This document shows positions 1,695 to 14,322 of a stretch of DNA of 14,322 nt, one piece after another. This DNA comes from Chlamydiales bacterium (lineage in GTDB: Bacteria > Chlamydiota > Chlamydiia > Chlamydiales > JBDQID01): the NCBI GenBank assembly GCA_047611865.1, contig JBLFWS010000082.1:1-14322 (forward strand), given 5' to 3'. The translations under genes and the position numbers were made by a program. The stretch's first letter is position 1. Each line of letters opens with the position of its first letter. The notes under the pieces are model-generated. The model ran no database searches. It was not told where the DNA came from and was given only the letters and a program-made list of their open reading frames with translations.

Positions 1695-1873
1695 CGTTCA
1701 ATCCCTATTAGGAACGGCAATTGCCAATAGATTTATAAATTTGTATGAAATAATAAGATTACTTAGAAAAATTATAAATTGAAACCAGAAGTCAAGTTAT
1801 CACTTTTGGTAAAACCATTAGTCTTCCCAATAAAAGCCCCTTCCGCCTTTACCATTGTCTACAGATAGGGGCG

Positions 1874-1932
1874 TTGTTGCATAAATAACCACTGAGCCAC
1901 TGAGATCAGTGAGAAAGAATGAGAAAATTGAG
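1874..1932. repeat. Left arm of the inverted repeat flanking the GxxExxY gene (core 1888-1915)
   Basis: Core ACCACTGAGCCACTGAGATCAGTGAGAA (1888-1915) matches the reverse complement of 2301-2328 at 27/28. The outer TTGTTGC (1874-1880) matches the reverse complement of 2339-2345. Contains periodic TGAG units and the palindrome CACTGA-GA-TCAGTG. Confidence 0.9.
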
Positions 1933-1939
1933 GAACATT

Positions 1940-2283
1940 TTATACGATTAGCCGTCGGAGTCCATGCTTCAACAATTTTACGTTAAAATTTATCAACAAG
2001 CCTCTGCCTCCACCCATCTGTTTTAGGTAGGATAGGAGCTTTGCTTCATCAACTGGTAAAAGCTCCGAAACAGCTTTGATTTCAACAATCACCTGATCCT
2101 CAACGACCAAATCCAATCGATATCCAGCATCTAACTTAATACCTTTGTATGAAATAGGAATGACTTTTTGCCTTTCTACTTTCAGAGTATTCTAAGAAAG
2201 CTCATAACACAAAAAAGTTTCATAGCCAGATTCTAATAACTCTGGACCAAGCTCTCGATGAACCTGAATAGCTGCATGATCAT
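1940..2283 (-). pseudogene. GxxExxY family protein (PD-(D/E)XK nuclease fold, PDDEXK_3), pseudogene
   Basis: Minus frame reads [111 protein letters not shown] (TAA 1940-1942). In-frame TAG at 2192-2194. No in-frame start: there is a TGA at 2285-2287 and the nearest ATG (2281-2283) is one base out of frame. The motif Gly appears replaced (GPELLESGY vs typical GPGLLESxY). Confidence 0.9.
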
Positions 2284-2345
2284 CTCACTATCTCATACCC
2301 TTCTCACTGATCTCAGTGGCTCCGTGGTGATGAATTGCGCAACAA
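2284..2345. repeat. Right arm of the inverted repeat flanking the GxxExxY gene (core 2301-2328)
   Basis: Reverse complement reads TTGTTGC-GCAATTCATC-ACCACGGAG-CCACTGAG-ATCAGTGAG-AAGGGTATGAG-ATAGTGAG, parallel to the left arm TTGTTGC-ATAAATA-ACCACTGAG-CCACTGAG-ATCAGTGAG-AAAGAATGAG-AAAATTGAG. Confidence 0.9.
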
Positions 2346-2447
2346 ATCCTTGTTGAGATTAGAATGGATTTACCCAACAATACCCCCACAAACTAAAATC
2401 AAAAGCGAATTTCCGAAAAGTTTGAGTCTCTGATTTGAAAATACTAT

Positions 2448-2960
2448 CTAAGCTTCTTCCTCATTCAGGTATTTGTAAACGAAAGCTGAAATTGCACCAC
2501 CAGAAAACGGACCCACTAGATAAATCCAAGAAATGGAAAGATAGATCCCCCCATCAAAGTATCATAAAGTATTGATCCACAAGCTACAGCAGGATTAAAC
2601 GCTCCAGCAGAAAGCGGCCCTCCAACAAAGGTTATCGCTGCAAACGAAGCTCCAATAGCTATTCCATAAATATGGTTACCCTTAAGCGCATCACTTGTAG
2701 CCACAGCTAAAACAACTGAGCAAAGGACAAAAGTAAACAAAGCCTCCACAAAAACAGCCTTCCATACTGAAATTTCTTCAGAAACCTCAGGAAAAAATGT
2801 ATCCGTCGTAAAACATTGATAAATAGCAGCTGCTACAAAAGCTCCCAAAATTGAGAAAACATATATGCAGGAACAAGTTTTTTTTCCAACTTTCCCGTTA
2901 GACTTACTGCAAGAACGAGAAAAAGGGTCCCCAAAATTCCATTAAATATTGTTTAATAAC
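2448..2960 (-). pseudogene. Aquaporin / MIP family channel pseudogene
   Basis: Reconstructed across frameshifts: KQYLMEF/(L)GTLFLVLAVSLTG-KLEKKLVPAYMFSQF/(L)GAFVAAAIY...VEALFTFVLCSVVLAVAT...GGPLSAGAFNPAVACG.../ISWIYLVGPFSGGAISAFVYKYLNEEEA* (TAG 2448-2450). Frameshifts near 2935, 2849 and ~2535-2545. Only the second NPA motif is present. The 5' end is approximate. Confidence 0.88.
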
Positions 2961-10708: not shown

Positions 10709-11530
10709 ATGACATCTTTCCTTTCAAGTTTATTCACCAACAACGATTCTAGAATAAATAAATTACTATCCAATGCCACTCTCGACACTAATGTCAGTGA
10801 GCCCTCGGAAGCTCAGGTAATCCTCCTTCTTGAAACGAAAAAAAAACGTGCTCACAGAATCTTCCACGCAACTGTAATAGAACATCTCTATAACTTTCGC
10901 AAAGGGGATATTATCCTCCTCCAAGATAGTAGTGAAAAGGCCCCAAAAAGCTTGGACTGTTCTCAAATACGATATGTCACCCCCTCCAATCTTCGGATAG
11001 CTGGTTGGGAGTCAGTAATTGTGAGTCCTTTAAGGGATTCTCTGTTCCGGATCAACGAAAGAACAAAAAGTGCAATACAAGGTATTCTACATACTCATGA
11101 AAGCTTTACTCCAGAGCACAGCCTTGCAAACTTCAGGCATTTATCAGCTGCCTCTGAAACCTTAGGACATAAAGCTCCCTTTTCTACCGAAGAATATGTT
11201 CGCATTGTTTACAACTCTTCGCCTTCAGACAAAAACGTAGAAAAAAAAATTAAGAGACTCTCGTATATGGGGACATTACTCATAAAGAGAAATAAGGAAA
11301 AATATCAAATGCTAACTTTTCCTATACTCCAGGACTCTTTAATTCAGGGCATAAAAAAACAAGCTGACAGAAGAAGAATCTTTGTAATTGCCAACAGTTC
11401 CCATTTCAAACTTACTGAGGCTCCAAATCCTGAATATGTGCAGAAACTACAAGATTACTTAGGAACGACAAAATATCTTGTCCTGGATCCCGAGCGCATT
11501 GATAAAATATGTAGTGAAATGGCTAGATAG
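10709..11530 (+). CDS. Hypothetical protein; possible degenerate EreA/ChaN/TraB(TIKI)-fold protein
   Basis: 273-aa ORF with AGGAG RBS at 10697-10701. Ser/Thr/Asn-rich N-terminus. Motifs VILLLETK, DIILLQD and QDSLIQGI...RIFVIANSSH. The coding call is solid; the family call is tentative. Confidence 0.7.
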   Translation: MTSFLSSLFTNNDSRINKLLSNATLDTNVSEPSEAQVILLLETKKKRAHRIFHATVIEHLYNFRKGDIILLQDSSEKAPKSLDCSQIRYVTPSNLRIAGWESVIVSPLRDSLFRINERTKSAIQGILHTHESFTPEHSLANFRHLSAASETLGHKAPFSTEEYVRIVYNSSPSDKNVEKKIKRLSYMGTLLIKRNKEKYQMLTFPILQDSLIQGIKKQADRRRIFVIANSSHFKLTEAPNPEYVQKLQDYLGTTKYLVLDPERIDKICSEMAR

Positions 11531-11535
11531 CACCT

Positions 11536-11555
11536 TGCCAAGTTTAAGATTGGCA
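11536..11555. terminator. Short hairpin between convergent genes, possible bidirectional terminator
   Basis: TGCCAA (11536-11541) / TTGGCA (11550-11555), 8-nt loop, in the 34-nt gap between two convergent stops. No clear U-tract. Confidence 0.3.
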
Positions 11556-11564
11556 GATCTCTAC

Positions 11565-12260
11565 CTATTTCTTTAAAATGGCCTCTTGCTTTATTCCTTT
11601 GGCGATATCTACTAGTTCAGGATCTTCCTTACTTATTCTCAGGGCATTTTCTGCCTGTATCAACGCTTCATCATAATTCCCTAAAGAAAGATTGCATTCT
11701 GCTGCATATAGGTTAAGACTAGGATTCTCCTTATCTAATTCTAAAGCAAAGTCATATACCTGCTTAGCTTCAGAAATATTCCCTTGAAGTAGCTCTGACA
11801 TACCCAAGCCCATCCAATTCAAAGAAATCGATGGATTCAACAAACAAAGCAACATGTACATAGAGCTTGAAGCCGCAAAGTTTTCTGTATCAATCCCCTC
11901 TCCAGCCACCTGATACAAAAGAAGAAATTCATTTTCAGAAATCGATAAGATCTCCTGAAGAAATTTTTCTTCAGCAAATTTGGGATCTATAGACTGACAA
12001 AGATCAATTTTTTTCAATATAGGGGCTATTTTTTTATGCTTATGGCTTTTTTTAAAATTGTCAATCCCTTCAGAAATTTTATTTGTGAAACCGGAAAAGC
12101 CCTCTTTCAAGTCAAATTCTTTTCTCCTCTTAAAAACTTCATCACTTTCATGCGCTCTCTGCTCGGGAGATCTCTCTTCACATAATTTACTTGCAAAAGT
12201 TTTGATGTTTTCTTTAAAGGTCTTCTCAAAAGGGTGAATACTATCTCTTTTATTTCCCAT
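11565..12260 (-). CDS. TPR protein, SycD/LcrH (class II type III secretion chaperone)-like
   Basis: The C-terminal half LYQVA...LLCLLNP...WMGLG...GNISEAKQVYDFALELDKENPSLNLYAAECNLSLGNYDEA follows the three-TPR SycD/LcrH pattern. Start set at MGNKRD (12260), 4 nt after the upstream stop and with GAGG upstream, rather than 12311. Confidence 0.8.
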   Translation of the reverse strand: MGNKRDSIHPFEKTFKENIKTFASKLCEERSPEQRAHESDEVFKRRKEFDLKEGFSGFTNKISEGIDNFKKSHKHKKIAPILKKIDLCQSIDPKFAEEKFLQEILSISENEFLLLYQVAGEGIDTENFAASSSMYMLLCLLNPSISLNWMGLGMSELLQGNISEAKQVYDFALELDKENPSLNLYAAECNLSLGNYDEALIQAENALRISKEDPELVDIAKGIKQEAILKK

Positions 12261-12264
12261 ATTC

Positions 12265-12774
12265 TTAAGCCTCAGGTCTTGTTTGTAGATCTTCTGCCAC
12301 AAATTCATCACCAGGATCGGGAAAATCGGGCAAAGAAGCCTTAGGGATATTATATCCTAAGCCAAACTCTGAATGAATAGCATTATATATAGCAAAAACT
12401 GCTAATCCGGGTGAAAGAAATCCAAGCCCTATATTTTTAACAACTTCCTTAGCCACATCTTTTCCACTAAAACCACATTTTTTAGCTGTTATAGCAAAAT
12501 AAGCGCTGACACATACACCACCAACGAGCAATGTCCAACCAATTGGCGTAGCGAGAGATGCACCACCAGCTATGGCTCCCAAAGTTAATAGCGCAACTCC
12601 CACTCCAGTTAGAAATGAACTGGCTTTTACTTTGTTCTTCAGCGTTTTAAAGTGTTCTCCTATCCCTTTTCTAACTGCTGGAGGCTCTTCCCTCCCTTCA
12701 GGACCATCTACATATTGACGTTCCAGATTTCTGATATTATCTCGAGCCCCCAGCCCCTCTGTACCACCAGCCAT
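12265..12774 (-). CDS. Hypothetical membrane protein with bilobed hydrophobic domain (Inc/translocator-like)
   Basis: 169 aa from ATG 12774, preceded by a GGAGG RBS (12779-12783). Has a ~44-aa uncharged segment FLTGVGVALLTLGAIAGGASLATPIGWTLLVGGVCVSAYFAITA, a second hydrophobic stretch IGLGFLSPGLAVFAIY, hydrophilic termini and no signal peptide. Confidence 0.75.
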   Translation of the reverse strand: MAGGTEGLGARDNIRNLERQYVDGPEGREEPPAVRKGIGEHFKTLKNKVKASSFLTGVGVALLTLGAIAGGASLATPIGWTLLVGGVCVSAYFAITAKKCGFSGKDVAKEVVKNIGLGFLSPGLAVFAIYNAIHSEFGLGYNIPKASLPDFPDPGDEFVAEDLQTRPEA

Positions 12775-13109
12775 AGTTCCTCCATGTTTCACATTTTTAT
12801 TACTATACATATTACCATCTTCTATATTTATTTTTAGATTTAAATATAACAAGCAAACTAAACATACAATTCACTTTAATGATTAGACGTTTACATCCTA
12901 AGTTATTAATCGATAATAAATATCCATTTTCCTTCCAGACCATTCTTTCTATAAATTCTGACCCTCCACTAATGCGATCCCTATATGTGACGATAATATG
13001 TGCAAGCTGTAGCTTAGAGCACGTGACGTAAAGTGTAAAACCACAAGCGTTTAATAATACGTTACTTACCATACATCTTTTAAAAAATAGCAAGTGTGAG
13101 TTTGACCAT

Positions 13110-14322
13110 ATGACAAGCTATCAACAACACGACTTTCGTAGTTACAAGCCTACTAATTACAATCATATCGATGATGGTAAGGAACGTAGCGGTCACAGCT
13201 CACAATACGAAGATGTTCAGTTTAATTTTAGGATAGCTAACGAAAATGGACCTGCCATGATCTTGAAGTACCAAGTCAATGGCCAGCCTCCCTGTTACTA
13301 CACTATTCACTTCTTACAAGGAGAAAACAACCTCTTAGAAGGAAATTTGGATAGCAAACCAAAAGTTCTACAAATGCTCGCCAAAAAAGCTTCTCATATA
13401 GTTAAAACAATTCGAACTGCAAATAATGGACACTTCGACCATGCAAGTGTCTCAAAAGATGGCGTTGAAACAAGCGGGCCTGAATGGAAGCTTCATAAAG
13501 ATGAAAAATGTGGTTTTTCCAATAAAAATATCTCATACAACGAGAAAGTATCGAATATTTACGAAAAAGTAGAAGGCTCCCTAAGCGAACTCAAGCCACC
13601 TTCCAGGGCTCAAAGTCCAGAGTCTTCTCCTAGAATGGACCAAGCTCATCCTTCCGGTCATACAAATGCTCCTCATACACAGCCGACAGCAGAAAGACAG
13701 CCTCCTCCAGCCAAAATGAGAATCTCATCACAGCTTGATGACACCATAGAAGGAATCGATTCACATGTCGGTCAATTCAGGCACAGGCTAAGAGACCTTG
13801 AAAGTTCTCAGGCCGACTCCGAAGACGAAGAGCGTATCCGCACATTGAAAGAGAGCCTTAGACGCATAGAAGAAAACATAGCGTCTTTGCAAGAATACCG
13901 AAAAAAAGGAGGCCCCCTTGGAGATCTACCTACAAGTCCTTCAGAGGGCAGTAGCACCGAATCAGAGGTAATACGCAGTCAGGAAAAATTAATCGCAGAT
14001 CTAAGTGCAAGGTTAGCTGAAGCAATGGCAGGAAAATCCGGAAGAAGAAACGTCGCTGAAGATGACTTATCTCCCAGATCCCCCACCAGCATCGTACCGC
14101 CAGTTTCCACAGAAATACCCATAGATGAAGGCGCCGATGATGCCAGAATAAGACAGCGAAAATTAGATGAACTCAATGCTAAAATTAGGCGATCTGAAGA
14201 AGCATCCCCTACTGCAGGCGGAGAAACAGTAGAAGAATTACGGCAAGAACTAGAAGATTTCGGAAGGGAAATTTCAGAAAACGAAGCCCATATCGATCCA
14301 TCACAATTTGCAGAAATAAAAA
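13110..14322 (+). CDS. Hypothetical protein with coiled coils and Ser/Pro-rich linkers; 3' end runs off the window
   Basis: Open frame of 404 codons from ATG 13110 to the window end: MTSYQQHDFRSYKPTNYNH...PSRAQSPESSPRMDQAHP...RIRTLKESLRRIEENIASLQEY...LSPRSPTSIVPP...VEELRQELEDFGREISENEAHIDPSQFAEIK. Not in the ORF track because it has no stop in the window. Confidence 0.85.
   Translation, partial: MTSYQQHDFRSYKPTNYNHIDDGKERSGHSSQYEDVQFNFRIANENGPAMILKYQVNGQPPCYYTIHFLQGENNLLEGNLDSKPKVLQMLAKKASHIVKTIRTANNGHFDHASVSKDGVETSGPEWKLHKDEKCGFSNKNISYNEKVSNIYEKVEGSLSELKPPSRAQSPESSPRMDQAHPSGHTNAPHTQPTAERQPPPAKMRISSQLDDTIEGIDSHVGQFRHRLRDLESSQADSEDEERIRTLKESLRRIEENIASLQEYRKKGGPLGDLPTSPSEGSSTESEVIRSQEKLIADLSARLAEAMAGKSGRRNVAEDDLSPRSPTSIVPPVSTEIPIDEGADDARIRQRKLDELNAKIRRSEEASPTAGGETVEELRQELEDFGREISENEAHIDPSQFAEIK

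Follow-up and report, generated by a model that had tools for sequence, protein, structure and literature searches.

What placed a small nuclease gene between long inverted repeats in the genome of a Chlamydiales bacterium, and what does the gene product have to do with those repeats? The gene, of the GxxExxY family, lies in a stretch of 14,322 nt (GCA_047611865.1, contig JBLFWS010000082.1), here called the window; G000 denotes the host genome and C-numbers its contigs. An earlier note on this DNA had proposed a minimal element in which a PD-(D/E)XK protein takes the place of a DDE enzyme. The termini of the unit, the 9-bp duplications around its sister copies and its parents are instead those of an IS903-group DDE element, and that part of the proposal is not supported. 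In our judgement the unit is probably a broken, deleted copy of such an element, placed by the DDE enzyme, with the GxxExxY protein likely binding the inner repeats, or arms.

The unit spans positions 1870–2349 (minus strand) and has the structure of a two-gene IS5/IS903-group element of ∼1.56 kb that has suffered an internal deletion and become non-autonomous. It had been drawn as 472 bp, at 1874–2345; the unit stands but the boundaries do not, as alignment of its end copies in register puts the true ends 4 bp farther out on each side (480 bp), where they open with GGCG/GGAT-TTGTTGC. Two layers can be distinguished. The outer layer consists of 18-bp IS5/IS903-group terminal inverted repeats (TIRs). 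On the GxxExxY side (1870–1887, plus strand), the repeat agrees with the right end of IS903B at 15 of 18 bases; on the transposase side (2332–2349, minus strand), the third base is unlike that of the sister copies on C1 and C49. The inner layer consists of tandem-heptamer arms. One arm (1888–1913, plus strand) lies 3' of GxxExxY and holds three GAG-class heptamers, beyond which a purine-rich tail extends to 1939; the other (2303–2328, minus strand), also with three heptamers, lies in the parent just past the transposase stop codon. The inverted repetition itself is as first described: segments 1885–1915 and 2301–2331 are 94% complementary over 31 nt, forming the longest high-identity inverted pair out of 125 pairs in the window, and their cores (1888–1915 and 2301–2328) are identical at 27 of 28 positions. 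The arms had been called palindromic, but are arrays of CACTGAG, CACTGAG and CAGTGAG spaced 8–9 bp apart, and self-folding of each is weak (–5.0 and –3.9 kcal/mol). A short inverted duplication (CAACAA/TTGTTG) beside the unit end, at 2340–2355, possibly reflects fold-back synthesis.

Between the arms is a GxxExxY (TIGR04256/PF13366) pseudogene (1940–2275, minus strand) corresponding to residues 30–140 of the intact protein. The frame had been given as 1940–2283. A minus-strand PF13366 frame is indeed present (1952–2275, E 5e-34, one TAG), but it is not complete: the start is absent, and the first residue with homology corresponds to residue 30 of the intact protein (140 aa), at position 2275, where the truncated gene joins the opposite end of the element. 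That this copy is inactive was correctly seen, with the start lost and a TAG inside the frame (2192–2194). The putative catalytic D...ExK, in a 15-residue stretch and equivalent to D84, E94 and K96, is intact, as claimed. In the motif, Glu stands in place of Gly (GPELLESGY), and D and K replace the conserved residues H105 and Q108. The window copy is an ordinary dead remnant.

To trace the ends, we searched the host genome with an arm profile. There were 140 matches, 53 of them strong, and none in the reversed genome; further arm copies, which the earlier note had suggested looking for, include GxxExxY-bearing remnants and gene-less MITEs. Most matches start GGC[GCT]TTGTTGC, 4 bp outside the earlier boundary. 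This exact end motif occurs 141 times in the genome versus twice in the reversed genome, so the ends of the unit are not due to chance. When ends no more than 4 kb apart were paired, 82 pairs resulted, a number that includes chance pairings. The flanking 9-bp duplication is exact in 35 of the 82 pairs and matches at 8 of 9 bases in 16 more, and exact duplications of 4–7 or 10–12 bp were found at none of them. The unit's sisters, C1:17666–17928 and C49:13215–14722 (97–99% identical), have perfect 9-bp duplications. The same ends and arms also bound 61 near-full gene-less MITEs of ∼200–210 bp.

Several other features of these repeats were seen. The MITE family (201–210 bp; C5:19342–19551 and about 60 others) combines IS903-type ends with an inner arm doublet; most copies have 9-bp duplications, and coding similarity to the transposase or GxxExxY is absent. 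TIR-only remnants of 27–41 bp lie at C22:14537–14563, C6:28875–28905 and C37:9003–9043; the first has an exact 9-bp duplication, and the others show a match only when the register is shifted, or none. Ends of other small elements sit inside TIRs or arms at C29:27375, C83:11492, C205:2346 and C141:1838–2139, and at L242 and L248 of genome G279, suggesting that the repeats attract further insertions; these inserted ends are of GGTCC type and CGACAT type, with 3–6 copies each in G000. The C49 sister copy is interrupted by another IS-like ORF (13395–14582), which looks IS630-like, and a multi-copy element of ∼390 bp breaks the transposase at C37:128–511. A GxxExxY fragment of another subfamily (C96:703–843) has different purine-rich upstream repeats and is split by another insertion.

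The host genome also holds pieces of a parent. An intact NF033579 transposase on C57 (319 aa; 287 bits, cut-off 140) stops at a TIR plus arm. An overlap of C57 and C100, 97.8% identical over 319 bp, connects this transposase to an intact GxxExxY gene, and overlaps among C57, C100 and C37 put the two genes back to back, with GxxExxY reaching the other terminus. From these overlapping pieces and from relatives, we infer a parent element in the host genome. No complete two-gene copy is assembled there, which counts against our explanation. Transposase fragments are kept in other derivatives (C29, C124 and C135), and GxxExxY coding DNA remains at 17 or more places as remnants of the element. With partner TIRs in the same genome and no transposase of its own, the window unit fits the definition of a non-autonomous IS derivative.

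In related Chlamydiota the parent is intact (1,564 bp, up to 11+ copies per genome) and carries two divergent genes, one for a DDE transposase and one for GxxExxY. Its layout is TIR, arm, outward-facing transposase, outward-facing GxxExxY, arm and TIR, with the two genes about 120 bp apart. Two Waddliaceae MAGs have this layout at 15 loci; both ends were found in 14 (1,563–1,564 bp), and 10 of these 14 complete copies are flanked by perfect 9-bp duplications. A 1,570-bp two-gene version is present in genome G294. Locus L130 of genome G259, which belongs to the same order as the host, is identical to the Waddliaceae MAG locus L038, so the host is a chlamydia in the broad sense. The parent has the hallmarks of the IS5/IS903 group, namely an NF033579 DDE transposase, a TIR of ∼18 bp that opens with GGC.TTGTTG and a 9-bp duplication. 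It resembles IS903B in its transposase (44% identical), its end (15/18 identical) and its 9-bp duplication. It differs from IS903 and IS903B, and from the single-ORF ∼1.05-kb IS903 format (1,057 bp in the public record of IS903B), in its length of 1,564 bp, its second, divergent GxxExxY gene and the subterminal heptamer arrays at both ends. According to the part of the source available, Tn602, which is bounded by IS903, is likewise flanked by 9-bp duplications (PMC9282650).

Nearest to the window unit is L052, a 1,280-bp deleted version in a Parachlamydiaceae MAG. In a blastn comparison, nucleotides 1–67 and 75–480 of the unit match separate ends of L052, which places the deletion point in the unit; the junction (2276–2283) is where the transposase was lost together with the divergent intergenic region and the start of GxxExxY. 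Because this copy has lost both the transposase and the GxxExxY start, the DDE enzyme, rather than GxxExxY, is most likely what moved it. Very likely, an IS903-group element captured an arm–GxxExxY–arm cassette, and its DDE enzyme transposes the composite in cis or in trans. For the window unit, the enzyme would have acted on the outer TIRs, as for IS903 derivatives.

Could the 472-bp unit instead, as the earlier note read literally would have it, be an autonomous-type element moved by GxxExxY itself? Transposase-free arm–gene–arm cassettes of similar size are widespread (see below), and the window copy has no 9-bp target duplication (2/9 bases match), a fact that also counts against our own explanation. 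Yet the ends are IS903-type, a kind of TIR that free cassettes lack; the start of GxxExxY has been lost at the junction with the transposase-side end; the near-identical sisters have 9-bp duplications; and the derivatives on C29, C124 and C135 retain transposase fragments. The structure of the parent largely refutes this alternative, which we consider very improbable.

A search for a partner end to account for the missing duplication at the window copy found none. The unit lies in an interval between an aquaporin gene and a gene that we take to be yyaL, and the upstream gene has different neighbors in all three relatives compared (G001, G004 and G008). The locus is present in three public ice-metagenome runs, likely from one campaign and one of them perhaps the source of the assembly, and no RNA run was listed among the public runs holding it. 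No contig in four metagenome runs lacked the unit while joining both flanks; the joints seen were those of other deletion copies. There was thus no empty site for the window copy among the relatives and runs compared, which again counts against our explanation. Two observations concern the surroundings. The adjoining MIP/aquaporin-like gene (2396–2900, minus strand) seems broken, with a TAG preceding its last helices and a change of frame close to its start. By eye, the region 10709–14322, with a TPR chaperone-like ORF (11565–12311) and unknown ORFs, is like a type III secretion chaperone/effector region.

Given a DDE transposase, what is GxxExxY doing in the element? One alternative is that it serves as an accessory subunit of the IS, bound to the arms and aiding synapsis, cleavage, regulation or retention. 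TnsA works with TnsB in Tn7, which offers an analogy. Arms do lie inside both TIRs of every two-gene lineage and of the MITEs, and the close, divergent arrangement of the two genes would suit such a partnership. The passenger is also as well conserved as the transposase (dN 0.20–0.26 versus 0.20–0.27). Its dN/dS is about 0.06 (L032 versus L056) and 0.07 (window versus L052) in the two closest IS-linked pairs, and on these sequence comparisons it is under purifying selection. But GxxExxY or arms accompany just 5 of 30 transposase loci, only those at 71% identity or more, and all 25 related loci at ≤60% identity lack both, most with the same TIR type. Such plain relatives reach 5–9 copies per genome (G593, G058, G082 and G573), and the duplication length is still 9 bp. 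Since these relatives are multi-copy with the same ends, GxxExxY is probably dispensable for IS transposition. Nor is there a sign that the IS is targeted to arms, because none lies within 300 bp outside any of the 15 Waddliaceae two-gene copies. Finally, the IS-borne GxxExxY genes are not one clade: monophyly is rejected (AU p 4e-5, with groups defined once a first tree had been inspected), and the TIR-less, transposase-less cassettes L051, L064, L071 and L131 fall between them on branches with good support. The cassette has thus entered or left the IS more than once. We regard an accessory subunit as improbable. Within the IS, GxxExxY would rather be a hitch-hiker, kept through its own activity. 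In four plain IS903-group relatives (L257, L260, L273 and L280) the terminal repeats are lengthened to 40–100 bp, which could account for an arm copied to both ends.

The arms are not confined to the IS. The earlier note had proposed testing whether inverted repeats are enriched around other GxxExxY genes, and in several phyla they are. Sample 1 comprised 111 loci (relatives of the query and best hits in Chlamydiota), reduced to 90 by dereplication and to 86 with full flanks; five transposase-linked loci were set aside. At 60 of the remaining 81, the flanking inverted-repeat score exceeded the 99th percentile of displaced controls (the median score was 39, versus 16 in controls). Sample 2 comprised 90 loci from phylum draws, 82 of which remained once fragments and short flanks were dropped, and 65 of these exceeded the same percentile. 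By phylum, as named from the seed loci, the counts were 20/30 for Bacteroidota, 23/27 for Planctomycetota, 21/23 for Pseudomonadota and 1/2 for Desulfobacterota, in samples that both favor canonical members. These free cassettes have no IS903-type TIR. Long direct duplications were found at 1 of 56, which counts against our explanation, and an inverted extension into host DNA beside the ends was rare (7/56). Short inverted duplications of flanking DNA at an end were seen at L064 and L119; that at L064 corresponds to 26 bp of the end of the upstream gene.

Arms around free genes consist of two to four heptamers of the form CRCN-(GAG, AAG, GAA, GAT or AAT), ∼9 bp apart. In 110 of 113 typed loci, one heptamer class is common to both arms (shuffle mean 53, maximum 70). 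The repeat co-varies with protein phylogeny, with 35 class changes on the tree versus 64 when shuffled. A class spans phyla, and paralogues within one genome differ in class (G466, G490 and G311). Residue 24 of the protein covaries with base 5 of the heptamer, Thr24 being paired with G in 94/112 cases versus 1/30. On a careful tree with 11 independent pairs, residue and base changed the same way in 6.4 and the opposite way in 0 (median p 0.016); residue 24 was unchanged with the base in 4.6 pairs and the bootstrap had not settled, both of which count against our reading. A quick tree gave just four independent pairs (p 0.125).

E44, D84, E94 and K96 are kept in 162–166 of 168 proteins, and the structure model (pLDDT 86.7) has a restriction-endonuclease-like fold, with the core E, D and ExK of a predicted PD-(D/E)XK nuclease. 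Structure matches are weak and broad (3ijm, Z 7.9; BpuSI, 7.7; Cas4, 7.7; Hjc, 6.7), with the PD-(D/E)XK superfamily dominating, and the fold does not point to a particular substrate. The best Foldseek match was Cas4 SSO0001 (E 0.01, weak), and there was none at E 0.001 or better. Sequence searches found no solved structure, and PADLOC returned nothing beyond weak hits to Cas4 (E 5e-4). The family is common (108/300 Chlamydiota-side genomes and 44/71 in the Bacteroidota draw); a plasmid search found eight records with GxxExxY, all under 60% identical. GxxExxY/PDDEXK_3 is listed as of unknown function in the portion of the source seen (PMC3424549). We think it reasonably probable that the heptamer arrays are bound by the predicted PD-(D/E)XK protein and that Thr24, in its first helix, reads or tracks base 5. 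By analogy with RAYT and REPINs, it may also nick or cut the arrays or hairpins and so spread cassettes and doublets, to which we give somewhat less than even weight.

Arms are also dispersed without the gene. Of the 301 genomes in a phylum draw, 70 contain a strict arm pattern, for which the controls gave 0 matches across all of them. PF13366 was present in 58 of these 70 versus 50 of the 230 others, kin among the genomes not being independent; an association of the repeat with GxxExxY, which the earlier note had made a test of its proposal, is thus evident. Twelve of the 70 arm-bearing genomes had no PF13366 hit, and a profile search of five of these 12 found GxxExxY in none, which counts against our reading. 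Dispersal as doublets, in the manner proposed from REPIN-RAYT systems, was clear in G279, where a single GxxExxY gene coexists with 24 dispersed doublets that share the private spacer motif of the lone resident cassette. Among the 80 of 122 metagenome arm hits that we classified were 38 short doublets, 26 solo arms, 7 wider pairs, 7 hits that were cut off and 2 pairs of arms around GxxExxY. That only 2 of 80 frame the gene, and that one of the seven wider pairs holds an unrelated ORF, both count against our explanation. At L353, a 502-bp arm pair surrounds an ORF that by eye resembles a GNAT acetyltransferase; genes other than GxxExxY may therefore sometimes lie between arms.

The arms might instead be host regulatory or mRNA-stability elements, or sites for host proteins such as IHF/HU, into which cassettes merely insert or through which they autoregulate, without spreading them. 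Arms start just past a same-strand stop codon in 27 of 53 cases versus 8 of 53 at the mirror position, as might be expected of such elements, and some genomes have 11–30 arms with no gene found. Repeats of this family are moreover already in print. In the part of the text available, Aklujkar 2009 (PMC2700814) describes 'class 2 predicted global regulator binding sites' in Geobacter metallireducens, paired inverted arrays of three CACGGAG-type units that belong to the same repeat family as the GxxExxY arms; there they are presented as putative IHF/HU-type sites, without a link to a nuclease gene. One such pair, of 438 bp, lies just 5' of a glyoxalase-family gene (PMC2700814, same part). In genome G705, a 440-bp GxxExxY cassette with CACGGAG-type arms lies 5' of a similar glyoxalase-family gene; by this analogy, and as far as the available text describes it, the 438-bp Geobacter pair probably holds GxxExxY as well. 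Against host elements, heptamer class tracks the gene and not the host, with several classes per genome and one class across phyla, and the 24 doublets of G279 carry the spacer motif of its sole resident cassette. We judge a purely host role unlikely, and favor arrays that are read by the GxxExxY protein.

How do these elements compare with known systems? Transporter IS (tIS) and TnpB-bearing IS carry non-transposase genes. The parent is like them in holding a non-transposase gene, here a predicted nuclease under purifying selection, and unlike them in that the passenger is of the PD-(D/E)XK type, has its own repeat family and exists in a free cassette form. No Rfam match was obtained, so a guide RNA is not evident. 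As described in the accessible parts of the sources, REPIN-RAYT systems, REPtrons and TIRtrons share with the cassettes an enzyme gene, often single-copy, between inverted repeats (PMC3116915, PMC3733652); as in REPIN-RAYT, the GxxExxY repeats also occur as dispersed intergenic inverted doublets, and gene and repeat co-occur. They differ from REPIN-RAYT in three respects: the protein has a PD-(D/E)XK fold (TIGR04256) and is not an HUH Y1 transposase, the repeats are tandem heptamers with weak self-folding and not GTAG/CGTC-tagged palindromes, and the cassettes are strongly mixed across phyla. Neither a link between GxxExxY and repeats nor the two-gene IS was found in the literature searched, which took in few subscription journals and had ISfinder outside its scope. 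The parent thus belongs to the IS903 group, carries a nuclease passenger under selection and is apparently unpublished, and its repeats have already appeared in print for Geobacter.

More broadly, GxxExxY cassettes may form a self-propagating class, in which an enzyme of restriction-endonuclease fold reads its own heptamers and the cassette spreads its arms unaided; in Chlamydiota such a cassette would have fused with an IS903-group vehicle, shuttling in and out of it. We offer this tentatively, as possible rather than probable. The arms are a candidate DNA substrate for GxxExxY, for which a one-residue, one-base switch of specificity is predicted. The multi-copy, intact two-gene IS provides a test system in which each component (transposase, passenger, arms and MITE reporters) can be altered independently of the others. 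If the enzyme does spread the repeats, REP-like families would gain a second, non-HUH engine, and the published 'regulator sites' of Geobacter would be accounted for.
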